Shown: in pieces, positions 12,106-39,010 of the stretch
How the letters are laid out: every line of letters starts with the position of its first letter
Numbering within the stretch: the first letter of the stretch is position 1
Assembly (NCBI GenBank): GCA_051294905.1
Contig: CM119372.1
Span: 29,698,001 to 29,762,000 of the forward strand
Reading direction: 5' to 3'
Length of the DNA: 64,000 nucleotides
From: Botryllus schlosseri
Lineage: Eukaryota
Translations under genes and position numbers: made by a program
Notes under the pieces: generated by a model
Seen by the model: only the letters and a program-made list of their open reading frames with translations
What the model was told of the DNA's origin: nothing
Databases searched by the model: none

Positions 12106-12638
12106 CAGTGTTGGGATGACGAGTCAATTGGGAGAAATGTTTTGACTCGTGTCGCGAAGCAAAAATTTACGAGCCAATATCAGGTCATAGAATAAACGGT
12201 GTCAAATAGACCACTATAGCTTGTGTATACTCGAATTGTTTCCTCAGATCATAAATAAATTGACCGCAGATGAAACTATCACGACTTACGCTGTCATGGT
12301 AGTTATAAGGATTATTTTAGATAACAACATCTCTCTGTTTCATTAAAGGGCTCATTGCTTACGTTGTGCAGTGCGCACCCTTCTATATTTTGGTTGATAA
12401 TGTCTGACTGTAGCATTTATCTTTACAATTACTCACGAATTTTACTTGCGCGTGATTGATACAACATCTTTTGGCGCGTATAATTAACTATATGTTTGTT
12501 ATTTAATTCAATGTAGGTGCTAAAATTCAATTTGACTCGAGTCGATGCTTGACTCATGGCTTGACTTGGCCTGACTCGATTCAGGGTCAGCCATGACTCG
12601 AGATTACTGGTGACTCGAGGGAATTGATACCAACACTG
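12106..12638. mobile_element. hAT-type MITE (CAGTGTTGG...CCAACACTG, gactcga-rich) inserted in the giant element
   Basis: TIRs plus 8-bp TSD gtaggaag/gtaagaag; same family as 52959-53927. Confidence 0.85.
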
Positions 12639-15600
12639 GTAAGAAGTACTGCTTCAAGAATTCTGTGCTAAAAAAGGCATGTTCTTCAAAATTAATTATA
12701 TTATCGAAAACTAAATAGAACCGTTGACTTGCCGCCGACGAGTAAATGAACAGGTGAAATATCACAATCGAAGGGTATAGAGTATCACATTAAAATAACA
12801 TTATACCATGTTGCTCGCTCGTCAGTGTTTCAAACCATACTGAATCATAGACCTACCTTTGCGATATCTGGTCTTAGGCTCATTGTATTACCGATCTGGT
12901 ACATCCCTATAAATCCTATTCGAAGGTTACACCGTGTTGTAAGTTCTGATACATCCTATAGTGTGCGGTAACCTTGGTGGAAGAGCTCTGGTCTATAATT
13001 CTAAAATCAACCTGTGCTTTTGCAAACGACTTGTCTTGTCTTATTCAAGTATAAACACTGAAGAACAATAAGACGACGCCAAGCTTGTACGATAGCAGGG
13101 CCGAGTCGCATAAATGACTTCCTGAATTAAAAGAACTCGTAATACATTGCAGTACCACTGTTATTGATCAATAACAATTATGTACGTTGTAACTATACGA
13201 GCTGTGAAATTGTAAATTCACTTTAAATATTTCAAGCTATGACGGACCTCGGCTTTGAAAATAAGAGTGCTTGCTAGTAGTTCTATAGTAGCATCGCCTA
13301 TTTCAAAACTAGCACGCTGGTGAACCCTGCAATGTTAACATAAATACATTCAGGATGTCAGGACATGATCAAATTCACCAGAAATAGTTTTGTGGGTATA
13401 GTAAGCTGTGTAACGGGGGTTGTCTCGATTAATGGATCCCTCCGAAATATTGGAAATGATGGAACGATTACTAGAGGCAGTTCCAGTTATACGTATTCAT
13501 TGATAAAGACAAAAATAACTTACATGATTTTTGGCACTAGGCAATTTTTTGATTAAATTACTGAGCTGAAATATTGAAATTACTGAGCTGAAATAAGACG
13601 TAGAAGGTATTGTCTCATATTATGTTTTAACTACCGTATATTTACTTATATGTAAGTACAATTGAGAGCAAAATGCAGAGTTTGTGCCCGTAACAGAGGT
13701 GATCAAACCGGTCGAATATTCCTAAAATAGAAGTAAGATTGGTCAGATTTAAATCTACTTAATTAAATAAATAGATTACAAAGTGTTACTGAGTAGAGCT
13801 TGAGCAAGGGTGGATGTTATTGCTGCGATGGCCATTAGCAAGTATGAAGAACAGGTATTTTGTTAAAAAGAGCTATTAGTGCATACCGACAGCTACAAGA
13901 GTACGTTTCAAGTATTATTGAAGACGGTGTATGAGTTATAGATACATAGGCAGCCTAAATGTTGTCCACTAATATTAGAAAATTGTGCAAAAATGATACT
14001 GACATGATACTGCTAGAATGGTTCTTTGGCTTCCGCGGATAGTGAAACCTACATTTTTGAGTTGTATTTTGATATAAGTGGTTACTCGAAACAGATTGGT
14101 TTTGTGAAAAAGATTATTAGTTCATTGATAGTGTGTTGGCATTGATGACACATGTTATTTAAAAACATAAAAACAGGTGCCGTTCTATAACAGCACAAAA
14201 TAGCGTTATATGTAGCAGTGCGCGTTTGTTATTGTGTCTTCTAGAAGGGATAGTGTGTATGGACCAAGTTTAACCTGCCATGGTCAAAGTCTAGATGTGA
14301 CCTTGTGGCAAATTGGTTGGCTGTAGGGTGCATTAAAACTTGACCATAAATCATCGGATCAAAATCAATCGGAAGGTGGCATTTAAAAATTGGTCACATT
14401 ATATTGGAAAAATATGAAACAAGTTGTCATATTCGATGGCATAATTATGCGAATAAGAACATAGTTTTGTGAATCAAAATAATTGGAAGCGCGAAAATTG
14501 ACCCATGGGCCCTCGGCGCCACTGCACTGCTGGGTTAAACTGAACAAATATGAATTTGATCGAAGTGGCGCAAATCTGAACTGTTTGCCATTTGACCATT
14601 TGCCTTGTGTTGTCTTTAACTACAGGTCTATAGCTTTGAAAATAAAAAACCAGTTGATATAACGTCCAAGTGGAATAGAACCGTAATAATAATTAGAGGT
14701 TAATGTCTAATTTGCATATATTTGGTGTAGTGCATGTGGTGATACCGTTGACGATGGACCAAAAGCAATAAAATATCTCAGGCGTGTGAAAGTAGCAACT
14801 TACTGATTAAAATATTCAGACAGACGGATATTCATTTATCAGTTAATTAAACTCAGAGATATAAAAGAACCAATTTTTGCCAGGTATGTTTGTTTTTGAC
14901 CTTTACTGCCTGAAATAAGTAATAAATACACATAGAATCTTAAATGATGGGGTTCGCCTTGTTTTAGGGATGAAATTATGGGCATAGGTACGACAAAGGG
15001 ACATGATAAATTGAGGAGCGATTATCGCCGCCAATACAGGTAGCTTACCATTAATTTGTAGATTATGTAATGACACTTGGTAGCTGAAAATGTCGGCTTT
15101 AACTGGTTGACTTTACACTGATATATCTATCAAAATAATGGTTGAATGATAGTTTATAATCAAACCGCCAACTCTCATAATTGAATAATGTGCTCCAAAA
15201 ATTTTAACAGATGGAAAACTGAACGTATATTGGGTCATAAAGAGACTAAAGGGTAGGATGCTAGTTTGCATACAAAATAATATTTCCGTCTTTTACATTT
15301 TAAGGTTAAAAATTTTTTGAATCCAATTGAGATCGTTCATTTTGTTCATTTGAGCTGTGCGGGAAAACATAGTAACGACTGCATAATTAATCGGCAAAGT
15401 TGTACTTATAATTAAATTAAGGACAAACAGCAAATTTGCAGATACCACATTTATGGAATGCGTCAGCCATATCTGACTTTCCAAATTCATTGGTGGCAAC
15501 GGGCACAATTTGTTCAGCTTTTGGGTGAGAATTACAGTGACATAAATATATAAACATTAACAATAAGTTTATCTGAACCGCAGGAACACGCACTAAATTT

Positions 15601-17138
15601 AACAATCCACGGTAACGAGTATAAAATGGTGCAAATCATTAGTATGCGTAATGGGTCATGAATAATTTGCCGCAGGCAACAGCGATGTTGCAAATTGGAA
15701 AATTGACGTTTCCAAAAAGATATCATTTCTAATTATAAGTAAATAAGGTTACTAGCTTTACACCTGTTGTCAGGGTCTATCAAGTACTTGTGAATGTCGG
15801 CCCTAAACCTATAAAAGCTCTAATCAGCTAATTGAAATTGATAATAACTTGAGGCGCTATGATCTAATTTATTTAGTTTATTCTAGATGTTTTGTCGTCT
15901 ACTGGGGTCATTAACACCAGGCTGATATTGGTCTTACTTTTCCGAAACTATCGACTTATAGCTTGACCTACCGCTCGGATTTTGTGGGACACTGCTAACA
16001 CGGCATAGCGGGTGATGAGAGGTTTTTAGTTGTCCAATATTCATAACAAACGAGAAAGTGCGCATCTAGTCAGTAATTCCTCAATTTGCGCGCAGAACAA
16101 AAGGGATACGAACCCGAAAGTTCGGCCTAATTTATTGGAATTGTCACGTGAACACTAAGCAAGTAGGCACATCCGAGTCTATTTGCGATTGATGGTGCTA
16201 GTTTGAAATTGTCAACCCTAAAGAAACAGCGCGCGCCATGCGTTGAAGCTCTATTTCATATACTGACAGTTCATGATTTTTTGGGTATTAGGCCGTGCCT
16301 ACAATGGAAGTTGGCGACTTGGTGTTTTGATGAGATAGGAGGGATAAGGTTCAATGAAACTCTTTACTATATATAAAAGATTAAAAACAAATCACGCAGT
16401 AGTTAAAGGCCAGACATATGCTCCACGTAAGTCCTGGTCAGTCAGTCGGATATATAATGATCCATTACAACCTTAATAATACATTATTTCTACGGCCTGA
16501 TTAATAGAAGTAACAACATCAATGGGTTAATATTAAATCCGCGAAATAATTGTGTTTAATAGTGGATGTACAGCCACAAACTAGATTGCAGCATAGTAAA
16601 TTCTCACTCAAATTGAGGTATGAATGATTGATAACGGAATTTGATGACTTGTACTGCACGGTGCGATGTGTGGGCATCGGCTCCTGCGCAAATAGGTGTA
16701 ATTTTGTTAAAAATCAGGTATATGAACTATATGATGGTGTTCAGATTGTAATTGCTATAAACCAGACTATAATTACGGCACTCTATGACCATCAATTGGG
16801 CGGATGGCTGGGCTCTAAAGGACCCAGAATCATTTCATGAACTAGTATTGATCGTGGATGGTGACTTTGGAAAATTAAAAAACTTTTTTCGAAAAATTTT
16901 CGTGTAGTGAATGGTTTCTAGCCGTCAAATATCTCGAATGCACTATAAATATAGCAACAAGCATGTCGTCATTTAACATTACTATGCCACAGTTTATCAA
17001 CACTCGACAAAATAAATGGAGCCTTCCTGCTGGTTACTTGGAAAATTAATGACACATGGGCTTATTGCATTTCCACAGGCCTGGTATATATAAAGCCCAG
17101 TAACCACAATACATCTCCTTGTTGGTACAATTGTGGCC

Positions 17139-19111: not shown

Positions 19112-19283
19112 ATAAATTCTAGCATATTGTTTGACTCACATGATTGGTGAGGTTGTATGAATAAAAGTTGAGCTAATGTATTTTCTCTGTTTTACATTGA
19201 TTTACAATATGAACCAATCTATTGAGAGTTGTATGAATAAAAAGGAAACATTCTGTATTCTAGAGTTATAAATAGTGAACTAA

Positions 19284-20156
19284 TTGAAGAAAGAAATGTG
19301 CTACGGGCTATTGTGCGACCCTAATACGGATCACAAGGTTGTCTACGAGTGGGCAATGCAGTTCGATCTTACGCAAAGGCAGCAGATAGTAATGGAAACC
19401 ATAAAAACTGCGCCGGTTCGGGATCGTTTGATGAGTCTCTTGTTCGGCACTTGTGAGCGGGACAATCCAAGGGTACAATATTGGCAACAATGTATGTACA
19501 CCAAGGAGGACTGGACAAAAATAGGAAAGCCTTTTCACCCGGTTGGGAGCGGTGAATGTAAACAATGTTACCTTATGAGACACGTAAAACCGTATTTCAA
19601 GAATACCGGGCAGATTTTGGAACTTATGACATTATGCCATGATTATTTAAAAGAAGCTTGTAGTATGCACAAAGGACTAGATCAAAACACCGAAAGAGAT
19701 AAAGGACATATAGTGCTTTATGTGTTATATCCAGAAGCGATAATAACCGCCATAGCTCTCCTGTTGCAACAATATCGGGGGGAAAAAAACATGCGAACAT
19801 TTTGTTTTACGAGATGTCGGATGGACGCAGAATTTGAGTTTCTATTTGGGGGAAATCTAGAACAATGGAGATTTACATACGGGTCCACGAGCACGTTTGG
19901 TTATTTGGGAGGCGTTTTTATTCTACCGATTGACCAAGTGTCGGAATCAACCTTTAAAAACTCGTTAAAAAAAGAGGGAGACAAACAAATAGTCAAAAAC
20001 ACCAATTCGGAAACTACCTTGATGTTTGATATTGAATCTTCAACCAGTAGAGACAGTAGGTTTCCAAACAGACCAGAGGCTCCGACCCGAATGGTAGCTT
20101 TACGGAGACCCAGTGTAGATGGATCCCATGCTGCCTCTAGTGGTAATATGGGCTGA
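19284..20156 (+). CDS. Cargo ORF, paralog family A (first ATG at 19296)
   Basis: NPRVQYWQQ and IVLYVLYPEAIITAIA match NPRLLYWKQ and LIMWIIFPEVQIYALA of 23296-23850. Confidence 0.7.
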   Translation: MKKEMCYGLLCDPNTDHKVVYEWAMQFDLTQRQQIVMETIKTAPVRDRLMSLLFGTCERDNPRVQYWQQCMYTKEDWTKIGKPFHPVGSGECKQCYLMRHVKPYFKNTGQILELMTLCHDYLKEACSMHKGLDQNTERDKGHIVLYVLYPEAIITAIALLLQQYRGEKNMRTFCFTRCRMDAEFEFLFGGNLEQWRFTYGSTSTFGYLGGVFILPIDQVSESTFKNSLKKEGDKQIVKNTNSETTLMFDIESSTSRDSRFPNRPEAPTRMVALRRPSVDGSHAASSGNMG

Positions 20157-21517
20157 TTCCAAAATAAGCTACTATTAGTTTGATCTAGAAATTGTATTGA
20201 TTGATCTGGACTTTTAGGGCTAGCCTAAAAGATAAGCCATGATAACTGAATTATTTAGGGCTGACCGGTGGTGGTTTAGGACAACTTATCAATTCGGCAC
20301 TACTACCAAAAGGTCAAACTTAACGGAAAAAGTATAGAAGCCGGTTATAGTGAAACTTGAGATTAGCAAAAGTAGAAACTATATACCTGTATTTTACGAT
20401 ATATATATACTCAGTTATTAATACAGTTTCCCTTTTTATTAAATGATTTCGATACATTGATCAATCGCTGGGATAATTCCCACCACCACCTCCCCTAGAA
20501 TAACATCCCGGGGACTATGAGAACTTGATACTTGAATGCAAGATCGACCTATCTTTATTGCCAAAACTTTTTAAATTCGAAAAGAACTTGTTATTGTAAA
20601 TTATGAAAAACTGCACGTTTTTTGTTTACTGTTATATTGAATGTTATGTACGTATTTTCGGCTGCAATTTTCGTGTTGAAATTTAGTCTGTAATGGCCCC
20701 AGACCACCTACCCTATCACAAATCACCTCGTGTTCATACTTAAATGTTATGCTAATCGAATTATATTTTATAAAGGCTGACGTGAGCGTAATCTTTTCTG
20801 TTTTGCCCACAATTGTCGCTCTGCCAAGATCTTTTTGTATGAGCCTCACACCAAATTGCTGCTAATTGAGTTATTGCTGTTATTACAATTTTATTTGATT
20901 ATGTAATAGTTTTGTAAAGTAGTCTTTTGAAAATTACTCACATTCCTGTCTCATGGCACCCTTCCTCTAATGGTCTCTATGAGACGAAGTTGTATATTAC
21001 TTGTATAATTGACCCTTGAATTAATTAGTTTCGCCGTCCAGAGAAACTCGTGTCAAAACATGTCTTATGGAAGGGAAGGCAGGGATGATGATTAATATTA
21101 CTTTTTAATAATGTTTTAATTGATATGTTGTATAACTTTTCCCACTAAAAAAAATCTTCAAAATGATGAAATATCGGAATTTGTTTATAAGTTATAAAAA
21201 TTAATAAAAATGACTGTCAAAACCAAAAGAGAAAAGCCATATTCTAAGAAAATCTTCAAAGGAAAAAATTATATAAATAAAAACCAGAAGAAAAATTTAC
21301 AAAATAATAAAATCCCTTGTGGGGGGGAGAGAATTATTGCCTAATAAGTACTGGGTGATTAATAAATGAATAAATGTCTTTATGAGTATGGAGGATACTT
21401 TATATAAGTGCTGAATGAAAATTAAAGGCATTATATGAATCTTGAAAATTGCTATACCGAGAAAATGGAAAATTGTACATATTTTTAAGGTATTAATAAA
21501 AAATAAAAATAAAAGGA

Positions 21518-22084
21518 ATGTTGGAATTTGATTATATTGAAGGTTACGATCCATCGAATTGGTGTCTTTTGTACGATGTATATGATGAATTGGATCTATT
21601 GAATCTGAAAGAATATAACAGCGAATATGAGAGATACCAGTTAAAAGAAAGAATATGGGAATTGCTTACGGACCGAGTTGATTGGGTTAAACAAACAGAC
21701 AATGGCCTAGCAGAGGCAGCCCTAGATGAGGAAATAACCCCAGAAATTTTTGATATATTCAATCGTGTGGTAGAAGAGATATTTGAAATAAGAGCGAAAG
21801 AATACACCTCTTTTGGAAGAAGAGTCATGTTGTATGAATTGATTAGAGGACTTGTGATGAAACTTACAAACACTAATATAACAAAGGATGTGTACCAGGA
21901 GAGAGAATATTGTAAAGATCCGCCACATATGGAACAATGGAATTGTCAAAATAATTTGGGAATAAAAGGCTATTCAAGTTCAATACATTGGCGAACAAAA
22001 AGGATAAGGCGAATAGAAATACATCCTTACCCCTACGAAAGGGAAAGTGTGAACATTGACTTTATAATACCGGAACAATCATGA
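21518..22084 (+). CDS. Cargo ORF, paralog family B
   Basis: RRVMLYELIRGLVMK...QNNLGIKGY matches RRVVYEVIRGVVMK...QKNLGVKGY of 25040-25753. Confidence 0.72.
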   Translation: MLEFDYIEGYDPSNWCLLYDVYDELDLLNLKEYNSEYERYQLKERIWELLTDRVDWVKQTDNGLAEAALDEEITPEIFDIFNRVVEEIFEIRAKEYTSFGRRVMLYELIRGLVMKLTNTNITKDVYQEREYCKDPPHMEQWNCQNNLGIKGYSSSIHWRTKRIRRIEIHPYPYERESVNIDFIIPEQS

Positions 22085-22181
22085 ACAATCATGAGTAATG
22101 ACAACGAATGTAAATAAGATTTTGACTTACAAAGGGCACATTTTCCAAAGGTATAGAGTAACAAAGTGGGTTATCTAATTC

Positions 22182-23231
22182 ATGAGTAAAATGAACCGAG
22201 TGGAACTACTAGTATTATGGCTGGGTATGTGTAATGCTATTTATCCGGAAACAATAGAACAAAAGAAGTGTACAACAGATGAAAGACGAACCATGTTATA
22301 CCCGGAATGCATGCAAGGAAGCAATTTGGTACTTTGGTGTGACCATTCGAGCTATACAAGAATTCCGGATCCTGATAAGATATACCTGGCAAAATCTTGT
22401 CGGAACACAGAAAAGATATTCATCAACGACAGCTGCCTACGGGAAATAACCAAAGAACAATTGGAAAAATATAAAGACATAGAGGTGTTACATTGTGGTT
22501 GGAATAAAATCCAAATACTACAAGGAGGTGCCTTCTGCAAAAATGAAAAACTCAGGGAAATAAACTTGATGCGAAACTACATCACACAAATTGAAAAGGA
22601 AAGCTTTTCAGGCTTACACCAACTCGATAGTTTGTATTTAAGCAGTAATTTACTGGCAGAGATAGAAGGATCGATATTTTCAAGCCTGGAAAACCTAAAA
22701 AGACTATATTTGGATAACAATGTCATAAAGAGACTAAAGAACGGAACATTCAATCATCTGCGTCGTTTAAGAATACTGGATTTATCAAGAAACGCAATAA
22801 ACGTTATAGAAGAAGGGGCGTTCAAAGGACTGAGGAAACTGGAAACTTTACATTTGGATGAAAATAGACTGGTTGAATTTGATATGACAATACTCGAATC
22901 TTTATGTAATTTAGAGAGATTAACGTTGTACTATAATAACTTACGATATTTTTCTCTGTCCTCCAACATCTCGTTCAAATATCTACATACTATTGATCTT
23001 AGTTATAATCATGTTCAATTTCTTAGTGATTCCCTATTGAAAAAATTACCAGATTTGGAGGTTTTAAAATTAAAAAGAAATAATAATGAAACGTCTACCA
23101 AAAGACCCTACGTGCGTAAACAATCGAGATTATATTATGCTGAGATGAAAAGTTTATCCCATTGTGTGACTATACATTCAAAAGGTGCATTTGCCTTTAT
23201 TGTTTGGCTAGTCACTATCGACCTGATGTAA
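22182..23231 (+). CDS. Secreted or membrane-anchored leucine-rich-repeat protein, intronless
   Basis: Signal peptide, Cys-containing LRR N-cap, about eight 24-aa typical LRRs (LxxLxLxxNxIxxI...F.gL), hydrophobic C-terminus. Confidence 0.88.
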   Translation: MSKMNRVELLVLWLGMCNAIYPETIEQKKCTTDERRTMLYPECMQGSNLVLWCDHSSYTRIPDPDKIYLAKSCRNTEKIFINDSCLREITKEQLEKYKDIEVLHCGWNKIQILQGGAFCKNEKLREINLMRNYITQIEKESFSGLHQLDSLYLSSNLLAEIEGSIFSSLENLKRLYLDNNVIKRLKNGTFNHLRRLRILDLSRNAINVIEEGAFKGLRKLETLHLDENRLVEFDMTILESLCNLERLTLYYNNLRYFSLSSNISFKYLHTIDLSYNHVQFLSDSLLKKLPDLEVLKLKRNNNETSTKRPYVRKQSRLYYAEMKSLSHCVTIHSKGAFAFIVWLVTIDLM

Positions 23232-23295
23232 TTTGAAGAAAATGTGGAATTTCGAGGTATTGATTTAGTATTGTCCTCTGTTCAACTAGTAATAG

Positions 23296-23850
23296 ATGTT
23301 TAATATATTAGAATACGGTAAAAAAATTACTAAAAGTATCAAAATGTGTTTGGGATTGCGTTGTGATGATCCAGATATACAACATACGACGTGGATACCC
23401 CAAAAAGAAACACTAATAGACAACGGATTAAAGTCGCTGAAGTTTCTGTTGACAACATATTCACTGACGGATCACTTATGTGATATAATGTACGACGAAT
23501 TAAATCCACGACTACTATATTGGAAACAAAAGTATGGTGTCACAACATGCAACAATCATTGGCTTGGGAAACATCTGGTTGAAAATGAGTGGGAAGAAAT
23601 TTATACAGGAAGCATTTACCCTGAAAAACCTATACAAATGGCTTTTGCAGAAATTTGCATAAACTGGGTAACAATTTTAAAGAGAGTAAATCCTGAAATA
23701 AGGGAATTTCTAAAAAAGGGAGATTCTGAAAGAGATCTCATAATGTGGATAATCTTTCCGGAAGTTCAAATTTATGCATTGGCAAAGACGCAGGAAATAT
23801 CATTAAAGGAAGCCGATTGTAGATTTATGACTTTGAAAGTACCTGCATGA
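23296..23850 (+). CDS. Cargo ORF, paralog family A
   Basis: Shares two motifs with 19284-20156. Confidence 0.7.
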   Translation: MFNILEYGKKITKSIKMCLGLRCDDPDIQHTTWIPQKETLIDNGLKSLKFLLTTYSLTDHLCDIMYDELNPRLLYWKQKYGVTTCNNHWLGKHLVENEWEEIYTGSIYPEKPIQMAFAEICINWVTILKRVNPEIREFLKKGDSERDLIMWIIFPEVQIYALAKTQEISLKEADCRFMTLKVPA

Positions 23851-23918
23851 AACTTAACTTTCCGATGTTTATGTATACAGAAACTACTTTTAAAAAGACA
23901 ATTAAGTTTTAAATAAAT

Positions 23919-24866
23919 ATGAAGACTAAAGAACCCAGAAAAAGAAGAAATCTATTCAATCTTGCTCGATGTGGTATAATATCAAGTGAACGAAAATGTA
24001 TAAAGTTTTTGCGATCACGGAAACTCCTTGTTCAAAAGGCAACATGTTTTAAATGTGGACAACAAATGAATGAAGAAAAATGCAAAAGAACTATGGATGG
24101 ATATAGATGGAGGTGTCTGGTTTCAAAGTGCCGGACTACCACGTCCATAAGGAAAAGATCGCTATTTGAAGGAAGCAAAATAAGACTCACCCAACTTGTA
24201 ATGATGATTTATCTTTGGACCATAGATGCATCTCAACGACAAATAGCTTTTGAAGCACACGTCAGCAAGAGAACAATGGTGAATTGGACCAAGAAACTTC
24301 GTAAGATATGCTCTGGGGAGATGGAAAGAAGAGGTACTCTAATAGGGGGAATCTCACAAGGTAAATCACATGTAATTCAAATTGATGAGACGTTTGTGGC
24401 CAAAAGAAAATTTAATCGTGGAAGAATAATACGCCAACGCTGGGTTTTGGCTGGAATAGATATGAAAACGCGAGAAATGTTTGCAGAATTGGTACCTGAA
24501 GAAGGGAGAAAAACCTCTGTATTATCAGAAATAATTATGAAACACGTAAAAGAGGGATCCACTATATGGACTGATTCATTTGCCAGTTACCGCAAGTTGG
24601 AAAGCCTGGGAATGAATTATAAACATTCAATAGTTAATCATGATCGCGAATTTGTCACCCCAGAAGGCATAAATACACAATTGATCGAGGTGTCTTGGAA
24701 TTTTTTCAAAGCTGCTATTAGAAGACTGAATGGGGTATCAAGATCACATATTCCCCATTACTTACAGGAGTGGCTCTGGAAAAGAAGGGTGGCCTTGGAG
24801 GAAAGGTTTCAACTATTTTTGGAGATAATGGCCCTTGATCCTAACTTTAGGTCATTGGAACATTAA
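23919..24866 (+). CDS. Merlin/IS1595 (ISXO2-like) DDE transposase 2
   Basis: CFKC...WRCLVSKC, IQIDETF, IWTDSFASY, HSIVNH...TQLIEVSW; own ATG; clearly diverged from transposase 1; no flanking TIRs seen. Confidence 0.92.
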   Translation: MKTKEPRKRRNLFNLARCGIISSERKCIKFLRSRKLLVQKATCFKCGQQMNEEKCKRTMDGYRWRCLVSKCRTTTSIRKRSLFEGSKIRLTQLVMMIYLWTIDASQRQIAFEAHVSKRTMVNWTKKLRKICSGEMERRGTLIGGISQGKSHVIQIDETFVAKRKFNRGRIIRQRWVLAGIDMKTREMFAELVPEEGRKTSVLSEIIMKHVKEGSTIWTDSFASYRKLESLGMNYKHSIVNHDREFVTPEGINTQLIEVSWNFFKAAIRRLNGVSRSHIPHYLQEWLWKRRVALEERFQLFLEIMALDPNFRSLEH

Positions 24867-25039
24867 AACAATGTTGTCACTATGACCAGTATCATTCGAT
24901 ATAAGTGATTTGAATCTTTTGGGAAACAATATAGGCGTAGATGAGTATACTAGTGTTATAATCCACATGTTTATAAAGCTATGAAATGTTTCTATTTAAG
25001 TACATATATGAGTGAGAATTATAGAATAAGCATATTATT

Positions 25040-25753
25040 TTGTTATTGTGTCACAGTGGGATAATGTATTTATATGAAATAAGGAGTCATAATGCGACTA
25101 TTTTTCAAAACCTACTGACACAACTGGATGAGGTTGAACTAACAAAAAAACCTAAATTTCTCAGCGTCCTGATGAATGTGCTCAAGTCTTTTTTTGAAAA
25201 GGAACAAAATTGGTATAAGAGACCGAAAGCATGTGATGGTGATGAATCTTGTGCTTGGACGTCAGAAGAAGACACAGACAAAGATTCAAGCCCAGATGAA
25301 TTATATGAAACAGACTCCGAAGACTCCCAAGATTCTGCCATAGTGAAAAATTCATCTCAACAACAACGTGTAATAGTATGGAAAGAGCAGACGATACAGC
25401 CTGATGAAAATTCATGGACTATAATTACGGAAACACTATTGGGAGTAATCAGAAGAATACCACCCTCAGGAATAAGGCGAGTAGTATATGAAGTCATACG
25501 AGGAGTAGTAATGAAATATACCAGAATTTGGATATGCATAACTAATCTTGATTATGTGGAAAGTGCCAACTCCAAATGGTCATGGCACAGCCAAAAGAAT
25601 TTGGGGGTAAAAGGATATTTGGCATTGGATTATGAAACAACTGCTATGGAAGGATATATATATATTTACTCAAAAAGAGTGAATAGAGAAACTGAGTCGA
25701 TGAGACAATATCTGGAAAATTTTTATCATCTTGCTCATAATCCACATTATTAA
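25040..25753 (+). CDS. Cargo ORF, paralog family B
   Basis: See 21518-22084; carries an extra acidic stretch. Confidence 0.7.
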   Translation: MLLCHSGIMYLYEIRSHNATIFQNLLTQLDEVELTKKPKFLSVLMNVLKSFFEKEQNWYKRPKACDGDESCAWTSEEDTDKDSSPDELYETDSEDSQDSAIVKNSSQQQRVIVWKEQTIQPDENSWTIITETLLGVIRRIPPSGIRRVVYEVIRGVVMKYTRIWICITNLDYVESANSKWSWHSQKNLGVKGYLALDYETTAMEGYIYIYSKRVNRETESMRQYLENFYHLAHNPHY

Positions 25754-26014
25754 TGAGTAGGTTAAAACGCCTAAGCTATGGAATTAATGGAATCAATGTT
25801 AATTGTGAAAGTGATAAAATCCGTTATTAATGGGATAAATTTAAGATTGTGGAAAATTGAAATTCGATACATTGAAACTATTGTTATTAACATTTGTTGT
25901 TGCATGAAATTTTAATGGTCTTTGTTTTTCATTTAAGAACAGAATGTTTATGTGTTAATACTAGAATATTGGATTGGTATGATTGTATTTAACCATTTTG
26001 ATTGGTATTACTGA

Positions 26015-27765
26015 TTGCCTGTTCTGTCAAAAGCCATTATACCAAGAAGCAATCAATTTGAAACTATGGGCATTCTGATGAAAAGAGATCGTGATCCTCC
26101 TGGACATAATTGCATTTATATTCCACCTGGAGATCACCGGGTTGAGCATTACAGACTTGCAACGTTCAAACATTTTCCGAAAGAAATTCCTGTGATACCG
26201 AGTTATCTAGCCGCTGCTGGTTTCTATTGGACAGGATTTCAAGATAGAGTAAGATGTTACTGCTGTGGCGTATCTGTGGAAAAATGGGTCACTGGAGATG
26301 ATGCCTTTGATGACAAGTGGCATAAATCTACTTGTGACATGGTGACCGGACAACATGGTTATAACTTGCCTATTTCAAATTGCTCAAGGAGGCTCCTTTT
26401 TGAACAAATTAGGTGCCACCTTAACTTTACTACAAGAAGTCAGCAAACTAATCGGAATGTGCAAAAACCGACTATTAAAGAGGAAAAATGTCCATTACCG
26501 CAAACCGTGTTTGCGAACATTTGTGACCAAGAACATGAGACTTCATTGCGATCAGCAAATTTGAGAAGTGAACTAGAGAGAAGAAGAACCTTTGACAAAT
26601 GGCCTTCCTATCCTGCTCCATATTTGGTTGGGGAATTGGCAAAACAGGGATTTTTCTACCTAGGAAACCTTGACAGAGCGCAATGTTTTTCATGCTCAGG
26701 AGTACTGAGAAATTGGGCACCCACTGATAATGTTCTTGAACAACATAAAAGACATTTTATGCAAAAAAATGCAAAATGGCAAATAACGAGTATGCGGGAA
26801 ACATGTCCTTGACAGACTCCGAGAGAAATCAGGCAGATAATGAACTTAAAATAAAAATTGAAAGGTTAACTGCTAATAGGGGAGAACCTCCGGATCCATC
26901 GCCAGAAGAACAACTCCAGTTGGTGGAAAGATTCCCTTGCCTTTACCCGATAAATTTGCATATGACATCGTTACAGCAAAGAATATCTTCGTTTAATGAA
27001 AAATGGCCCAGGATCCTCGCAACAGCGGAACAATTGGCTAAAGCGGGTATGTATTATCTAGGGGATTCGGACAGAGCGAAATGCTTTTACTGCAATGGAG
27101 GACTACAAAACTGGAACTACAATGATGAGCCGTGGACAGAGCATGCAAAGTGGTTTCCTGGTTGTGAATATGTTTTGCAAATGAAAGGTATTAATTTCGT
27201 TTTACGACTAAGAGATGAACATCCCAATCTCAATCGACCATCGATAAGAAATGCAATATGTCTTGATGCACCACGAGAAGAGATACGAAGGAACCATAAT
27301 CGACCAAGGTTATCTGGACAATACATAAACAGGATGCAATTGGAAGACATGGGATTCACGAGAGATCAAATAGAAGGAACTATAAATAGACAAATTAATG
27401 ATCATTTCTCTACTGGTGACATAATCCAAGATTTACTGGAGACAGTGGATACAATCTCCACGAGTCCAATAAAAACAACACAACAACAAGTTCCCAGTAT
27501 GTCTGAAAATAAGCATGAAGTGAACAACAACAAAGAAACGAAAGAGGCAGCAGTTGCAGAAACAATGTCGGTGGATGAAATCGCGCAAAGTTTAAAAGAA
27601 ATACAAGAGGTGGTGCTTTGCAAAAATTGCAAGAGAAACAAAAGTGAAATTACTTTCATACCTTGTGGGCATTTATGTAGTTGTGAAAGATGTGCAACAA
27701 ACTCTGAGCGATGCAACATTTGTGGTGAAACAATACTGGAAAAGATAAAGGTGTATAGAGCTTGA
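26015..27765 (+). pseudogene. IAP: Inhibitor of apoptosis (3 BIR + UBA-like + RING), intronless, frameshifted at A7 run 26763-26769
   Basis: BIR1 RLATF...GFYWTGFQDRVRCYCC, BIR2 GFFYLGNLDRAQCFSC...EQH, BIR3 GMYYLGDSDRAKCFYC...TEHAKWFPGC, LEDMGF, C-terminal RING CKNC...PCGHLCSCERC...CNIC. ORFs 26015-26812 and 26776-27765 join at the end of BIR2. Confidence 0.92.
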
Positions 27766-27911
27766 TGGAGCAGGCAGGACTATTATTTTGTGGCATGAAT
27801 GCTCTTGATGCATATGTATAATACATGATGTTACTAGTTACTTTTGCGCGTATGAATCAATTATTCGTAAAATTGAACATATGATTTTAACGTACTTTAT
27901 TCTGTATTAAG

Positions 27912-28367
27912 ATGACTAGAGTATTAGAGAATTGGGAAATTACGCTAGCCAAGAAACAAATTAATGAATACTATGATGAATTTGAACAGGAATACCATCA
28001 TCAAAATTTTGAGATATGGAAAAATACCCCAAAGGAAAAATTCAAACAATTAATAAAGAAATACCTTCATCATTGTTTTGCGAATGTGACAGAAAAACTT
28101 TTTGATAAGCTTTATGACGCACATAGCGATATTGCTCGCGTTTTTGTTACAAAAGATTTTGATCTGGCCCAATATACATGGTTTGGACTTGTTCTAAAAC
28201 TACATCCGGCTCATAAATATCTACCAGAAGAATTTCTGGATGAAAGATTACCACAGATGGAATTGCAAGATTCTACAACATTACTTCTAAATGCTCGAGA
28301 ATTTGAAACTGTTGCTATTCCAATTTTAGAAGACGCTTTTTCCAAAATTGTTATACTGCACGATTAA
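27912..28367 (+). CDS. Cargo ORF, paralog family C (copy 1)
   Basis: F..Y...W...H..I...A...W...LHP...E motif shared with 28373, 30066 and 30610; closest to 30066. Confidence 0.75.
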   Translation: MTRVLENWEITLAKKQINEYYDEFEQEYHHQNFEIWKNTPKEKFKQLIKKYLHHCFANVTEKLFDKLYDAHSDIARVFVTKDFDLAQYTWFGLVLKLHPAHKYLPEEFLDERLPQMELQDSTTLLLNAREFETVAIPILEDAFSKIVILHD

Positions 28368-28372
28368 GAGGA

Positions 28373-28768
28373 ATGTCTCGAAGAACCATAAGTAACCAGG
28401 AATTATTGCAAATGGGACATGAATCTGCAGTGTGCGACTTGAAATATTATTTTGACATGTTCTGTAAATACTATGAAGAAGATGTGGAAATTTCCGACAG
28501 ATGGCAAAGATGGGCTATGACAAGACCCAATGACATTGTCAGAATGCTGACGCTGTATGTTGACAAAGTTTACGGAAGTGCCTTATCTCCTCAAGGCAAG
28601 GCTCTGGGATATCACGACGCTATTAAAGAACATAATCGGATTGCAATTATTACATTGGGAAACTATAAGGAAGCCAAATTCCTTTGGTACCAACATATTG
28701 TTCGTATGCATCCCATGAAGGAAAACGTTTCAGAACAATGGATAAAAGAATGTTTGAAAGATGATTAA
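28373..28768 (+). CDS. Cargo ORF, paralog family C (copy 2)
   Basis: GNYKEAKFLWYQHIVRMHPMKE matches GNYEKAKLLWFHYMARMHPMEN of 30610. Confidence 0.75.
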   Translation: MSRRTISNQELLQMGHESAVCDLKYYFDMFCKYYEEDVEISDRWQRWAMTRPNDIVRMLTLYVDKVYGSALSPQGKALGYHDAIKEHNRIAIITLGNYKEAKFLWYQHIVRMHPMKENVSEQWIKECLKDD

Positions 28769-28887
28769 CTAAAATTATGTATGTATTGCCTCGAATTTTC
28801 CACTACATCAATGAGTCGCATAGAATATTTCGTATAAAAAACCCTAATTTATGTAATTATGTTGGCTTGCTGATTAAGACTTGATGA

Positions 28888-29415
28888 ATGTTTAATGGTG
28901 TTTGGGTTTTTTGTGTAAGGAATTTTAAGACATTAGGAATTTATTTGATTTTTAATCGTGACATGTTGGAAGTCAATTATGAAAAGTATGAATATGTGCC
29001 CAAAGACCCACAGAAGAAAGAATTGAACCGAAAAAAGTTCAGACCGTGTCCATATCCTACGATACCTGACAGCAGAGTTGCCTGGCTAAGGATGGGAATT
29101 GTACATGAACGAATAAAAGAAAGGATCGAGAACTTTCCGACTATGACAGCCAATGACATGGAATACGTATTGAAGGATTTTCTTGTTTGGCTATACCGGG
29201 ACCATGAGGTGGTGGAACAATTGGAATGCGCCAGGAAGGTACTGAAGCGCATTGTGGAAGAAAACTTTGGAGAAAGTCCTGCATACTATTTGTATGTATT
29301 TCTACGATATGTGTTGGCTATAGCTAATGTTGACGAAGATTGGAACATTACTAGCAGAACTATTGCCGGCTTTTCACGAAATATGTATGTTATGGATAAA
29401 CGACTGAATTGGTAA
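28888..29415 (+). CDS. Cargo ORF, unknown (start may be the ATG at 28942+)
   Basis: 175-aa intact co-oriented ORF between family C copy 2 and the E2 gene. Confidence 0.6.
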   Translation: MFNGVWVFCVRNFKTLGIYLIFNRDMLEVNYEKYEYVPKDPQKKELNRKKFRPCPYPTIPDSRVAWLRMGIVHERIKERIENFPTMTANDMEYVLKDFLVWLYRDHEVVEQLECARKVLKRIVEENFGESPAYYLYVFLRYVLAIANVDEDWNITSRTIAGFSRNMYVMDKRLNW

Positions 29416-29473
29416 TGTTTCCCTTTCTTTTTATGTGTGTAAGTCTTACCGAATAATATAGAATCTACACCGA

Positions 29474-29929
29474 ATGGCAAAGCATAGATTACATTTTGAA
29501 AGGCGAAAAATCACTCAAGAAATTCAAACGAACCCTTTAATTTTACAAGCGGGGCCATTGGACGAATCGGATATCTATGTTTGGCAAGCACTTTTGCGCG
29601 GACCATCAAAGACACCATATGAAAGGGGAACATTCCTTCTGAGAGTTGAATTTCCAACGGAATATCCATTCAAACCTCCGAAGATTAAATTCGAGACCAA
29701 AATTTTCCATCCGAATATAAGCCGTAAGGGTACCATATGCATTGACATTCTTGCAAATGAATGGTCACCTGCTTTAACGTTGGGAAAAGTATTGGTCTCG
29801 ATTTCGTCATTATTGGCTTCCCCTAACCCAGAAGATCCAATGGATGTTGAGAGTGCCAGACTGTATCGGGATGACTACGAAAGTTATCAAAAGAAGGCAA
29901 TAAACTGGACTGATATGTATGCTAAGTAA
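29474..29929 (+). CDS. UBC: Ubiquitin-conjugating enzyme E2 (UBE2D/E-like), intronless
   Basis: GPSKTPYERGTF...YPFKPPKIKFETKIFHPNISRKGTICIDIL...WSPALT...PNPEDP; HPN motif and active-site Cys intact. Confidence 0.95.
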   Translation: MAKHRLHFERRKITQEIQTNPLILQAGPLDESDIYVWQALLRGPSKTPYERGTFLLRVEFPTEYPFKPPKIKFETKIFHPNISRKGTICIDILANEWSPALTLGKVLVSISSLLASPNPEDPMDVESARLYRDDYESYQKKAINWTDMYAK

Positions 29930-30065
29930 ATTGCTATGTACCTAATACGCTTATCACAATTATTGAATATTTTGGGAGTGTAATTATACTTATATGTGTT
30001 AAAAATGTTAGTAAGGAAAGTTTCCGGTCCAATAATCAACGTAAAATTCTCTATATTAAGAAAAT

Positions 30066-30521
30066 ATGGGGGATAAAATTGTTAGAGTAAAGCATGAACT
30101 TGACGTTTTCTTCGATTCCTTTGAAAAAAGATACGAACACAAAGACTTCAGCAGATGGGCTGCAACAACACGGGATGAACTGGAAACATTTATGACACCT
30201 TACTTGAGGATTTGCAACCTAAGAATATCCGATAAACTGTTCGATGCGCTATATAAAAAGCATTTAGCCATCTCCCGCATGATATTGTTTGAAAATTACG
30301 AACATGCCAAGTTTTGCTGGTTTGTTTTCTGTGTTGGATTACATCCTGCCTCGGATGTCATACCTGAAGAATGGGTGTTGGAAAGAATGCCTTGTTCTGA
30401 TAGAACCGGATTTTGTATTTATACCACTGATAAACTCTTTAATGATACTTTTCCCTCTGATGTAAGAGCTGCTATACTGATACATAAAATGAAATGTAAT
30501 GGCTGTAATTATGAACAATGA
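30066..30521 (+). CDS. Cargo ORF, paralog family C (copy 3)
   Basis: Same length (151 aa) and motifs as 27912-28367. Confidence 0.75.
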   Translation: MGDKIVRVKHELDVFFDSFEKRYEHKDFSRWAATTRDELETFMTPYLRICNLRISDKLFDALYKKHLAISRMILFENYEHAKFCWFVFCVGLHPASDVIPEEWVLERMPCSDRTGFCIYTTDKLFNDTFPSDVRAAILIHKMKCNGCNYEQ

Positions 30522-30609
30522 GTGCATGGATGGTATATTGTATTTTTTGCCAGGTTGAATGTCTATTAATCATCTGTGACGTGTATGACAACTATAGACC
30601 CTTACCTGG

Positions 30610-31089
30610 ATGATTAATTTCTTTCAGAAAATTAAAAGTATGAATAACGCGGAAGTAAATGATAAAGGTGATGTTGATGTCACCAAACTAGTTGGATCTA
30701 ATGTGGCGGAACAAGACTTGATCTTTTATTTTTGGTTATTCAAAGAACGATATGAAGCAGGAATACCTCCCTCTCATAGATGGTACGAGTGGTCAAGGAC
30801 CCCACCCAAATATATCAAACTTGGATTGAAATGTTTTTTCAAACGAGTTAAAGATACCCTTTCTGATGAGAAGCCCCTTGTTATTGACTACCAAGGAATA
30901 CTAGAAAACCATAAAATGATAAGAAACATGGCATCTGGAAATTATGAAAAGGCTAAACTTTTGTGGTTCCACTATATGGCTAGAATGCATCCTATGGAAA
31001 ACTTGATCAAGGATGAATGGGTGAAGGAACAAGCTGAATCCACGGAACCCTTTTACCCCGAGGATACTGTAAATGTCCTAGTCCTATGA
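30610..31089 (+). CDS. Cargo ORF, paralog family C (copy 4)
   Basis: Paralog of 28373-28768. Confidence 0.75.
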   Translation: MINFFQKIKSMNNAEVNDKGDVDVTKLVGSNVAEQDLIFYFWLFKERYEAGIPPSHRWYEWSRTPPKYIKLGLKCFFKRVKDTLSDEKPLVIDYQGILENHKMIRNMASGNYEKAKLLWFHYMARMHPMENLIKDEWVKEQAESTEPFYPEDTVNVLVL

Positions 31090-31380
31090 ATATGGTTAAG
31101 TTCATGAATAATATTGATTTCATGTATTCCTATTGCATGTGTATAAAGCGTTATAACTGGCCTACGGGATATAGAACGGTCAGAACCTCTATTGCGTCTT
31201 GCATAGAGTCATTTTATTGTATTTTGTCGCACAGAGAATTGATTCCGTCACGTTCACAGCTTATTGAATGGTTTGGTTAACCTACATTCAGAAATGTTTT
31301 ACAGTTTGTACTGATTATTGCCAATCGGTTGACTGCGAATTATGTTTAATACTGAGGGGCCTCGTCATCCCTACAGTATG

Positions 31381-31389
31381 TATATAAGG
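31381..31389 (+). promoter_or_regulatory. Candidate TATA box of the genomic (LTR) promoter
   Basis: TATATAAGG in the non-coding interval ~840 bp upstream of the PBS; position is plausible but unproven. Confidence 0.35.
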
Positions 31390-32224
31390 CGTTATACACT
31401 GCTACGCCCTTACCTTTAAGCAGGACCCTAGGGACCTTATCACCCCCTAGTTTAACGAAAACAAAATGCCGAACTTTACGGTGAGAATCGTTATTGAAAA
31501 AAAATAATGAAAAACAATATAAAATTTATAAAATTTTCTTTTACATAAGCCAAACATGGAATGTTTGAAGTCCATTTTTATGGAAACACTAAAATTATAC
31601 TGATAACTGAAACTATACTAGAGAACTCATCAGCAGTGTTCAACTAAGCAACACCTTGTTAAGGGTAGTATCGAACAGGCTGATTAATAGGCCTATGGTA
31701 ATAATAATTGTACTGACGATTTGACGTCCTTAATGCTGATTGTGTTCTTGTATTATGTGATGAAATATTTTTGAAAAGATCAGCTTTTCGGCAGGACAGG
31801 CCGTCGCATGAATTATATGCGTAAACAAACCTTGGAGTATTGAAAATGTTTGTTAATTGTGTATGATGATGTATAGGTTAAACCATGCCTTGTGTTATAA
31901 TTGATGAATGATGTGTATGCCAATTTTAACCAAGCTTTGCATAGAGTTACCACATTTCCGTCTGCGCAATTAACTATTGGAGTATTTGGTTGTATTAAGG
32001 TTCCAGATTATCAGTAGATAAGGGTAGATTAAAATTCTGGACCCCAGGGTCATTGTCAACTTGAGAAGAAACAATCCTACAACTGTTGTTGCTCCAATCA
32101 CCATTTACAGACGTCGTCAAGATACTAAAGCAAACGAAAGGCAACGCTTTACTAGGAAGTAACCCGAACAAGTGTGGACTACTCGCATAACAATCGTTGT
32201 GGAGCTGCACTCTAAAAACAAAAT

Positions 32225-32242
32225 TGGTGGCCAGTACGGGGA
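32225..32242 (+). promoter_or_regulatory. Primer-binding site complementary to tRNA-Ile(AAU)
   Basis: TGGTGGCCAGTACGGGGA is the 18-nt complement of the 3' end (UCCCCGUACUGGCCACCA) of animal tRNA-Ile(AAU) as I recall it; it lies after ...AACA and ~310 bp before gag. Confidence 0.88.
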
Positions 32243-32271
32243 CCTTCCGGTGTTCAGACGTTGACCAATCG

Positions 32272-32541
32272 ATGCTTTCTAAGACGACCATCGTAAAACT
32301 TGTACTTGTCGTATCCTTGCTTTCATCGTCTGTATCTCTCCTGATAATATTGGCAGCAATTTATCTGCACGTATCACCTGGAGCGCTGTCTAATCTGTTG
32401 AACGTATTTTTGGGATCTAATAGCAGCGAATCCACTGCTTACGTCCAACCCACGAATACGCCGCAGAGATCTACAATATATTTTAACGTGTCTTCGCGTG
32501 ATCTACTACCTTCTGTCAATAGTACTTTATCCGGTCAATAG
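32272..32541 (+). CDS. Small leader ORF (89 aa) with signal-anchor/TM segment between PBS and gag
   Basis: ATG at 32272; hydrophobic IVKLVLVVSLLSSSVSLLIILAAIYL; NSS/NVS/NST sequons; stops 8 nt before the gag ATG. Confidence 0.5.
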   Translation: MLSKTTIVKLVLVVSLLSSSVSLLIILAAIYLHVSPGALSNLLNVFLGSNSSESTAYVQPTNTPQRSTIYFNVSSRDLLPSVNSTLSGQ

Positions 32542-32549
32542 GAAGGGCA

Positions 32550-35500
32550 ATGCGAAGGATGTTGAAAGCATTCAAAAGGAAAAAGTCGTCAGAAGCGACG
32601 GATGAACTCAAACAAGGTATTACCTTGCTTAAAGCGACACAAAAACGCCATGAAGATGTACGGCGACAAGAAAGACAACTGGCTAAGGACGTGGCTGAAC
32701 AAACAGAACTATTAAAAGAGGTAAAAACAGCTCTGCCGGAAACCATGAAAGGGTTAGAAAAGGCAAAAAAGGAGGTTCGAAAAGCTCAAGCGGACCTCAA
32801 AGCTGTTTGTGATGCCACAACAAAAGTTAGCGGGAAAGTCTCTACCGAGGTGCTAAATGACATTCTTACTTCAGAGTTTGAGCTCGGAAAGTCGCATGCA
32901 CAAGTTACGCGAGATAAGACCCAATCTCCCGTTTCGACGGTACTTCCAAATGCACCGGAATATGACCCTCCGGCATACGTTCCCCTCGATGAGCAGATGT
33001 CGGGTTACGTAAAACAAGGGCCAACGATGACGGTTCGTAAGGGTTTGGATTGCCACACTGTAACGGCCGTCTATCCCACGCTCCCGAAGCCCGAGTCAGT
33101 CGCATTGTCCGACTCTTTAAAGGAACCAGCGTCCTGTTTCCCTGTGGGCAGTGGTGTACGCGCCAAACACAAAAATGGAAACCCGGCAACGGCGGGAACA
33201 AGGACGGAACCTGCAAAAAGTTCCTTGAGTAAAAATAGGGGATATCAAGGTGGGCAAGAACGCCGCAATTTGGAGACAGAATCCCGTATAAATGCGGACG
33301 GCGCTTCCCAACGGGTAACCTTTCATAGTCCAGTCGAGGAACAATCTGACGCAGAAGACAGTGAAGTCGATTTTAATACTCGAATAAAGCGTCTTTCCCA
33401 AGACATAAGAGATAATATAAGGTCTCTACGGGGCGGTGCCAGCTCTCTGGATTCCGCGGAAGAATCTCGCGATATCTCTCGTTCTCCTGATACACCTCGC
33501 GCTACCTCCACTCCAAAAGAGTATGGGGGGAGGACTAGGCAACAACAACAACAACTACACGAACACTCTGGTATTTCAGCCCCATTACTCAATGTGTCTG
33601 CTAAAATCCAATCAGAAAAAGAAATGCTTCAGCTTATGATGGACCCAGGAGACATGCCATTACTAAAGTGGATGGAAAATTCGATGCGAAGAATACGCCA
33701 CGGTCCTGGAAATACGGATGTGGATGTTATTTTGGCTAATGCGCTGCAGAAGAAATTGAGGGCTGCTGGCCGACACAAACAGGCTACCCAACTGGGAAAT
33801 TTTTTTAATACCAATTCGGGAGAAGCAGAATGGGAATCGGTGATGCGATCTCTTTCCTTATCCAATCCCCAGGGTTTGGTAAATGATGAAAAGATCATTG
33901 GAGAATTCCGCAGAAACTATCGCTGGGAGGATGAGCCGCTACCTCTGTTGAATAGCGCTTTGAAGCAACTAGAAATAAACATGGATAGTCTTATTGAGGA
34001 TAATCCGGATGGATTGCGTCTTTTCCGAAATTTACGACAACGCCTTCCAGAAGCGCTCAGACTGATGTTGCGAGGCTGGGAAGAGGATAAAACTTGGCGG
34101 TACGTTGCGGAGGAACTACAACTTGTTTGGAATTCCGAGTTTCTGGATGAGCAAGAAACGCGCCCCAGGTATCAGGAAACAAAAGAAGTACGTGATATGA
34201 AACCGTCCTTGCCTCCTGTACACATTTACAATGTTCAACCTGCGGGGCAAATAGTGCACAGTTATCCCACTCATGGAAACGAGGACAGACAGCTCAACAC
34301 CCCTCCTCCACCTGGTGAAACACCACCACCGCCGGTGGTACAATCACCCTCGCCCCTGCAACCACTGAATAACTTTGGGGGGTCAACATCTCCTGGACCA
34401 CCTAGAGTGACCCCACCACGCCAACCTGACAATACAGGACAGGTTCCGATACGACGTCGTAATCCACAGCGTAATGCTCGCATTAATCGACCCCCTACTC
34501 ACATCATGAACGGTAATGGACCTGGTAGACGAGGACAATACTCAAGGGCCAGGCCAGTACAACAACAGAATGGGCGTACGGCATCAACGGGACCTAACGA
34601 ACAGCCAACGAGAATAACAAGATCTTCACGTGCTAGTCAAGGACCAGGAACCTCAAACCGAAGTCCGCGAATGACAAACACACAAGATTCCGGGATGGGT
34701 ACTGACAGCTCACAGATTACTCCGTCTAGCAGCCAGGAAGCCCGCAACATTGCTGACAGCCAAGGTGAGCGATACAATTTTCTTGGAAACCCGAATATTT
34801 TCGCTCCTCTAGGCTTGTATCTAAATCCCACTCAGGGACAATCGCTGTCCGTCTGTTATTACTGTAAGGCACCGGGACATCAATCCCGTAATTGCGTGGC
34901 TAAATTCATACTTTGGCTAAACGATAAGGTCCTTGCCAAAGATGAGGAATTAGGTTGGATAATTCGGGGGCGAGCGAGACCCGTACCGCCTCATGTGAAG
35001 GCATCGGCAGAACGTAATTGGAAACCTTTTCTTGAGAGAAATGGGATTCAGACAATTGAAGGTTTGGACCGGTATCTGGCTTTACATGGCTCTCCTTCTT
35101 TCGTGCAAAGAACCGCTCTGTGCGAAGCTTATTACGATACCCGGCCAAAAAGCCGAGATAGAACCCACTGGCATGACAGGGATCAATGGGGTCCTCATGG
35201 ACCACCTGCACGTTCCTCTGGGGGAAATATCCAAGTGGCCTGGGCGAAACCTCAATATCATGAGCGCTCGCGTCGTTATGATGCTTCATATTGGACAGAC
35301 GATGAGCTAAATCAAGGGGTACGACTTTCAAAAAAACGCCATGGGGTGCTGATTGATCCGGTGAATCAGCTCCCAGACAAATTGATATTTCAACACATAA
35401 AAACTGTACATAACTCTTCTTTACCCTTATTTACATTTCTTGATATGCCGGATGACCCTCTACAGCCCGATTTTACGGAATTGTTTGGTAGCCAACTGTT

Positions 35501-38737: not shown

Positions 38738-38838
38738 AGCTGTTTTTGGCAGAGTGTAAATATGTGACATAATAAGGGTGAACGGACAAAATCCCTATAA
38801 TGGGAGCAAACGGACAAAACTGAAACGTCGTAACTAGA

Positions 38839-38861
38839 AAAAATGCTGAGTCAGCATTTTT
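38839..38861. promoter_or_regulatory. Palindromic Maf/AP-1 element (T-MARE) with A/T flanks; CRE TGACGTCA at 38961-38968
   Basis: aaaaaTGCTGAGTCAGCAttttt has 11-bp perfect arms and matches the T-MARE consensus TGCTGA(C/G)TCAGCA. Confidence 0.55.
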
Positions 38862-38987
38862 ATATCTCGTGTGGAAAAACGAGAGAACAAGAAGAAAAAA
38901 GGATAAGTGATAGAATAAACAAGGCGATTGAAATAAAGGATCATGGGGAATCATAATGAATGACGTCAAGTAGAGACACGAGTTAAG

Positions 38988-39010
38988 CGGGCATATACTG
39001 CACTAGTTCC
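38988..39010 (-). repeat. Right terminal inverted repeat (23 bp)
   Basis: CGGGCATATACTGCACTAGTTCC followed directly by aagagttg. Confidence 0.8.

Follow-up and report, generated by a model that had tools for sequence, protein, structure and literature searches.

Why does a mobile element that has a transposase gene next to one of its ends carry a second, complete one among its internal genes? The question is raised by a 64,000-nt stretch of Botryllus schlosseri DNA (the window, to which all positions refer), in which one large element codes for two transposases of the Merlin type. The first (T1) lies near the left end of the element, and the second (T2) is embedded in a group of cargo genes. 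The initial annotation of the window proposed that the two enzymes divide the labour: T2, expressible from the integrated form, would excise the element, and T1, whose production would depend on splicing, would integrate it.

Organization of the element

The element spans positions 8-39010 (about 39 kb), and all of its genes are on the forward strand. A scan that tolerates mismatches found terminal inverted repeats of 23 bp at 8-30 (+) and 38988-39010 (-). Both start with GG and they are complementary at 17/23 positions, which leaves 6/23 bases at which the two ends differ; the 23-bp ends named in the initial annotation thus exist. The window begins inside the left target-site duplication, whose visible part (1-7) recurs at 39012-39018 in the right duplication (39011-39018; 8 bp inferred, 7 checkable). 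Internal copies of the ends do not exceed 16/23, and none of them adjoins T2. A 23-nt hairpin at 7-29 was also considered as an element end and discarded, as no second copy was found at three or fewer mismatches.

From left to right, the element contains T1 (about 297-1246; PF12762; 74-77% identical to its relatives P0003-P0005), three open reading frames without a Pfam match (1376-2740, 2951-3892, and 3979-7467), about 9 kb poor in open reading frames, the cargo array, a spliced-leader exon copy, a primer-binding-site-like (PBS-like) sequence, a gag-protease gene (32550-36974), and a frame for reverse transcriptase (RT), RNase H, and Tpt1/KptA (36938-38737). Two of the three left-hand frames, 1376-2740 and 3979-7467, are paralogous (27% identity over 137 aa). 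The cargo array consists of a leucine-rich-repeat gene (22182-23231; PF13855, E 4e-63), T2 (23919-24866), an IAP gene with BIR and RING domains by Pfam (26066-27765), an E2 ubiquitin-conjugating gene (29474-29929; PF00179, E 1.6e-47), and small paralogous genes. T2 is preceded by a cargo frame with a weak PF20886 match (23296-23850) and followed by another at 25064-25753.

The GG-starting inverted repeats and the duplication, of which 7/8 bases are checkable, fit Merlin elements, for which the available text of PMC8101967 gives GG ends and 8-9-bp duplications. The two transposases, the gag gene, and the RT-RNase H region depart from a plain Merlin with its DNA-only cycle, as does a DNA copy of part of T2 that lacks an intron-like segment. 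Conversely, gag, RT, and RNase H are those of an LTR retroelement, whereas the Pfam scan of the element frames found no integrase domain, and positions 1-45 kb hold no long terminal direct repeats, with an 84-bp tandem unit as the sole exception. The element is therefore neither an LTR retroelement nor a plain Merlin. We infer that its gene order is permuted, as if a retroelement had been opened between pol and T1.

T2 is an intact gene without ends of its own

The T2 frame (+) runs uninterrupted from ATG to TAA and codes for 315 aa. Its product matches DDE_Tnp_IS1595 (PF12762) with an E value of 2.6e-18 and 66.9 bits, against a curated cut-off of 27. The triad D156, D219, and E257 occupies columns that are nearly invariant in an alignment of 94 sequences. 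T2 keeps 56/64 Merlin-conserved columns, defined as those kept in at least 70% of the 86 other rows, and this number equals the median of those rows. One change at a family-conserved position, G178A, is common to T2 and P0001. The predicted structure of T2 has a mean pLDDT of 94.6, and its best PDB matches are the cores of retroviral integrases; no Merlin/IS1595 structure surfaced in this PDB search with the T2 model. The domain, the D-D-E triad with the conserved blocks, and the integrase-type fold are those of a Merlin/IS1595 protein and, judged by its sequence, T2 alone is an ordinary Merlin transposase. T1 keeps 49/64 of the conserved columns. K164R, V192T, and W221Y (T2 numbering) are common to T1 and all five of its relatives, and most of these rows also have L202F and N240D; the last 42 residues of T1, at its C-terminus, are conserved at 90-98% in three relatives. 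T2 gives the impression of a functional, canonical enzyme, and T1 that of the derived one.

No sign of terminal repeats was found around T2. In the flanks (23700-23930 against 24850-25110), the best inverted pair matches at 14/20 positions, does not start with GG, and comes without a duplication. Between 17000 and 31950, T2 is bracketed by 1798 pairs of exact 8-bp duplications, and the best inverted match among them is only 13/20. As a transposon of its own, T2 thus lacks both the inverted repeats and the 8-9-bp duplication. The initial annotation was right that the gene is intact, with its own ATG and full D-D-E triad, and that flanking repeats are absent; its spacing holds in part. The upstream frame is 68 bp away as stated, but the position 173 bp downstream is an in-frame TTG at 25040, and the next ATG follows at 197 bp. 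The GC3 of T2 (0.33) fits that of the cargo genes (0.23-0.43), compared with 0.47 for T1 and 0.46 for pol. Intact Merlin frames without inverted repeats are described in the available text of PMC8101967, where they are read as host domestication; unlike those, T2 is in a mobile element beside another Merlin enzyme.

Relationship between T2 and T1

T2 is divergent from T1, which has its own D-D-E triad, as the initial annotation held: the proteins are 38.6% identical over 308 aa and 44% identical in the HTH region. This distance rules out T2 as a recent duplicate of T1. T2 is closer to P0002 (Styela clava, 43%) and P0006 (45%) than to T1, and its best named match is from Styela clava. It has one close relative, P0001 (72%), whose contig is at most 1791 bp long and whose DDE core, at 76% identity, is as similar as any other part; T1-type relatives number five (56-77%). 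No shorter T2-type protein occurs among 201 candidates. The viral-contig scans with T2, T1, and pol as queries and two metagenome scans gave no genomic locus for the relatives, and the phage collection gave only two IS-like matches of 25-27%.

A quick tree was built from 61/160 proteins and the main tree from 22 rows; P0010, P0011, P0012, P0014, and other multi-domain or short rows were left out. In the 22-row tree, T2 groups with P0001 (100/99), and the end branches of this clade (0.2) are like those among the T1 relatives. The T1 group is a separate 100/99 clade, which is not the sister of T2 in the best tree, and the two clades meet in an unresolved node with P0002 and five other rows. The phylogeny thus places T2 in a separate lineage in the best tree, although a clade uniting T1 with T2 is not rejected (p-AU 0.259). 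Among the rows left out, the repeated pieces in the pseudoscorpion proteins P0010 and P0011 and the three domains in the krill proteins P0012 and P0014 were considered as precedents for two enzymes in one element and rejected.

These distances bear on a reading in which T2 is a passenger: it would belong to an independent Merlin family, would have entered as an mRNA or a nested copy, and would not act on the element ends. The closer matches outside the element and the position of T2 away from T1 in the best tree suit this reading. The joint clade that the test retains and the absence of any trace of T2 ends or of a duplication speak against it.

T2 in other copies of the element

Four sequencing runs were aligned to 19257-39236: X1 (DNA), X6 (labelled as another organism), X22, and X24 (both RNA). 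The summed depth is not a copy number, it counts only copies that are at least 85% alike, and T1 lies outside this stretch. In X1, the T2 bin has a depth of 1549, the cargo bins a median of 1145 (17 bins, 275-1670), and the gag-pol bins a median of 1765 (9 bins). T2 thus stands at 1.35 times the cargo median and 0.88 times the gag-pol median. The frame downstream of T2 (25064-25753) has a depth of only 275-564, so a variable gene is visible to this measure. Of the 17 joints in X1, 15 are listed, and not one of these skips T2. The initial annotation had named two outcomes that would speak against its proposal, the absence of T2 from most copies and its membership in an independent Merlin family with TIRs elsewhere. 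In the depths of this one DNA run, neither a shortage of T2 nor a large excess of it is seen.

X6, at a depth of 2, contains T2 gap-free and 97.9% identical, next to the same upstream gene (98.2%); the other listed pieces are 88-94% identical, and the IAP-E2 block is without cover. Homology ends 9 nt past the T2 stop codon and leaves the copies without a downstream end in common. The cover pattern indicates that the cargo is modular and that T2 stays with its upstream neighbour, with the qualification that the X6 contigs could derive from different element copies. From their high identity, T2 and this neighbour may have moved recently between lineages. Besides the spliced contig described below, a second contig has another internal T2 deletion, of 116 nt, which indicates that some T2 copies are dead. 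Judged by the X1 depth, the X1 joints, and the X6 contigs, T2 follows the pattern of an element gene.

The passenger reading finds some room here, as the pair of genes in X6 looks as it would after a recent transfer and the depth, at 1.35 times the cargo median, would allow further copies elsewhere. Against this, the T2 depth lies inside the cargo range and below that of gag-pol, and the X6 copy is intact and gap-free. We consider it unlikely that T2 is only a passenger.

Transcription and splicing of T2

One X1 contig lacks positions 24361-24767 (+), a 407-nt intron-like GT-AG segment inside T2. Its joint has a depth of 11.3, like other single joints, and 42 letters on the short side. Its two boundaries are the donor and the acceptor that score best within T2; by rough scores, these rank 14/1035 and 2/1277 in 17-39 kb. 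The chance of finding a plain GT-AG among 12 deletions is 12%, and far lower at sites this good. The simplest reading of this loss is a spliced T2 transcript copied back into DNA, by the RT of the element or by another one. The segment holds the whole catalytic triad, and the spliced form would keep 147 residues followed by about 22 out of frame. P0001 does not retain the acceptor codon, so this may be a cryptic splice. Another X1 deletion begins with the GT that follows the leader exon but does not end at a clean acceptor.

In the RNA runs, of which 3 (X22) and 6 (X24) in 100 were read, T2 is sparsely covered. Its bin has about 9 sense reads and no antisense reads in X22, a 3'-biased library, and a depth of 0.07 in the bulk run X24. 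The cargo bins of X22 have sense reads, and the gag-pol bins stand at 0-0.23. Joints from 31999 to 21498 in X24 were considered as element splices and rejected, as they represent host leader-bearing mRNAs (21-letter side).

T1 and its start

The initial annotation described T1 as splice-dependent. This is supported in that homology to its relatives begins only after an AG acceptor at 295-296, while the first in-frame ATG inside it is at 407, and acceptor-like residues stand at the start of homology in P0003, P0004, and P0005 as well. The supposition that T1 can be made only from an end-joined circle does not follow. The best phase-compatible pair of ATG and donor, at 65-70, lies inside the left end of the element, belongs to the top 3% of donors, and outranks the candidates in gag or in the right end; a splice-dependent T1 is therefore not a circle-dependent one. 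An in-frame ATG at 191 is also present upstream, closed only by a stop codon at 260; the predicted N-terminus of P0003 resembles 191-262, and its frame is open there. For T2, expression from the integrated form agrees with its own ATG and the few sense reads. However, T2 is upstream of the leader and PBS region, so it too needs an internal promoter.

Role of T2 in the element

Our preferred reading, which we hold tentatively, is that T2 is a captured auxiliary transposase that is owned by the element and may act on its 23-bp ends. It is favoured because T2 has no ends of its own, has 0.88 of the gag-pol depth, keeps its neighbour in X6, occurs in an intron-less contig, is conserved, has the GC3 of cargo, and yields sense reads. 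T2 would descend from a separate Merlin lineage of ascidians or from a very old duplication, would have lost its ends, and would since have been copied as part of the element RNA and kept under selection. Since the integrated element is permuted, a full genome RNA would need an end-joined template. With T1, the other frames, and the cargo placed before the leader, PBS, gag, and pol, integrated copies would have to be cut out; only after departure from the chromosome can a permuted retroelement give a full genome RNA, which makes T2 the obvious candidate for the excision step. Translated from an internal transcript of the cargo, T2 would raise mobilisation through the 23-bp ends, with a role that overlaps that of T1 and is not strictly required; lineages without T2 would rely on T1 or on T2 supplied in trans. 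The spliced form, lacking the catalytic core, would be a protein of about 170 aa that only binds DNA, and it could damp the activity. The auxiliary role is limited by the HTH regions, which are only 44% alike between T2 and T1, and by P0001, which may be a free Merlin.

The strict division of labour, in which T2 from the integrated copy excises and T1, made only from the end-joined form, integrates, is in our view improbable. The permuted layout, if correctly inferred, requires an excision step, and T2 is canonical whereas T1 has 49/64 columns and three changes found throughout the six T1-type rows, as would befit a specialised enzyme. The acceptor-like start of T1 and the sense-covered cargo bins of the 3'-biased X22 library also suit it. 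On the other side stand the phase-compatible ATG and donor within the left end, the single T2-type relative against five of the T1 type, and the place of T2 among genes exchanged between copies. In Teratorn, moreover, a single enzyme excises and reintegrates, according to the available text of PMC10175614. An extension of the same idea joins three steps into a provirus-like cycle of on and off states, driven by two Merlin DDE enzymes in a reverse-transcribing element. T2 from the integrated copy would cut out the element and join its ends, T1 would replace the integrase and insert the reverse-transcribed circle, and splicing of T2 to the non-catalytic form would set latency. We regard this joint scheme as doubtful.

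Less likely again, T2 would be a partner or regulator of T1, either as a subunit of a mixed transpososome or as a competitor that represses movement through its short, spliced form. The spliced form without the triad and the 6/23 differing bases of the ends are compatible with this role. A predicted T2-T1 complex gives it weak support, with a score of 0.60 against 0.00 for the best of three controls, agreement between runs in at least 91% of contacts, and a partner pLDDT of at least 78. Neither chain was folded with an alignment, and T1 was included only from ATG 407. The mark is reached by 51/78 solved pairs and 2/108 mismatched pairs, but scores of 0.60 or less comprise only 5/78 solved pairs and all 4 mismatches that passed, so passes at this level are more often wrong than right. 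Paralogues from a self-associating family can also pass on likeness, and a pure regulator needs no intact triad, yet the triad is kept in both T2 and P0001.

Comparison with known systems

Two proteins divide the recombination steps in the TnsA/TnsB heteromer of Tn7 and in phage Int/Xis, and splicing of the P-element repressor gives a non-catalytic, DNA-binding form. Those partners either differ in fold or are isoforms from a single gene, whereas the element described here has two DDE paralogues of the same fold. It resembles Merlin/IS1595 elements in the DDE_Tnp_IS1595 domain with its triad, the imperfect GG ends, and the 8-bp-type duplication; the IS1595-family members described in the available text of PMC8101967 each carry one gene for a transposase, and the present element has gag and RT in addition to its two.

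Teratorn, a fusion of piggyBac and a herpesvirus (PMC10175614), is alike in that a DNA transposase integrates a virus-like genome and in that one clade has the transposase gene in mid-element with the inverted repeats at the far ends. Its excision to a circle has been proposed in the same paper. Teratorn differs in using one enzyme for both steps and in being a DNA virus without reverse transcription, and the available sections of PMC10175614 describe no second, divergent transposase. The Burro elements of planarians are giant LTR retrotransposons that likewise have BIR-type accessory domains, and they also have env homology (PMC6431247). In the available text of PMC6431247 they keep an integrase, whereas no integrase was found in the present element, which has two Merlin enzymes and inverted ends.

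Full-text searches of openly accessible papers listed nothing, by title or abstract, about a retroelement integrated by a Merlin enzyme or a Merlin with two transposases. The novelty is in the system and not in the protein. Two DDE enzymes of the same fold with one pair of short ends offer a direct test of the directionality of excision and integration, and even if T2 is only a passenger, a retroelement has captured a DNA-transposase gene as cargo.

Additional features of the locus

The PBS-like site at 32225-32242 (+) presumably resembles the 3' end of tRNA-Ile; ARAGORN and Rfam scans found nothing. Upstream of this site, positions 31976-31999 (+) are an exact copy of the 24-nt spliced-leader exon of the host, followed by GT ('Chordata 1' in Table 1 of PMC3795323). 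Run X24 has adapter-capped 5' ends at this exon, and the copy may give element RNAs a host-type leader. Close by, a 65-bp segment (31783-31847) shows a pile-up of sense single-cell reads (bin depth 166) with dissimilar sequence on either side; it is a motif common to other transcribed repeats or subfamilies.

At the end of the pol frame, a Tpt1/KptA RNA 2'-phosphotransferase domain (PF01885, E 5.8e-11; 38243-38705) occupies the place where an integrase is expected. The IAP gene (26066-27765) and the gag/pol junction (36938-36974) each consist of two overlapping frames in the present copy. Between 17139 and 31089, diverged cargo paralogues form several sets (27912/28373/30066/30610, with 20-33% identity; 21518/25064; 19296/23296), indicating that duplication inside the element is common. 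The stretch of about 9 kb without long open reading frames (7500-17100) has repeats in common with host DNA at 53-57 kb, which represent nested host repeats. Outside the element, a foldback at 52104-54736 has arms of 785 nt that are 92% complementary, and a 236-aa frame at 59663-60373 (-) looks by eye like what we take to be the GIY-YIG end of a Penelope-type element.
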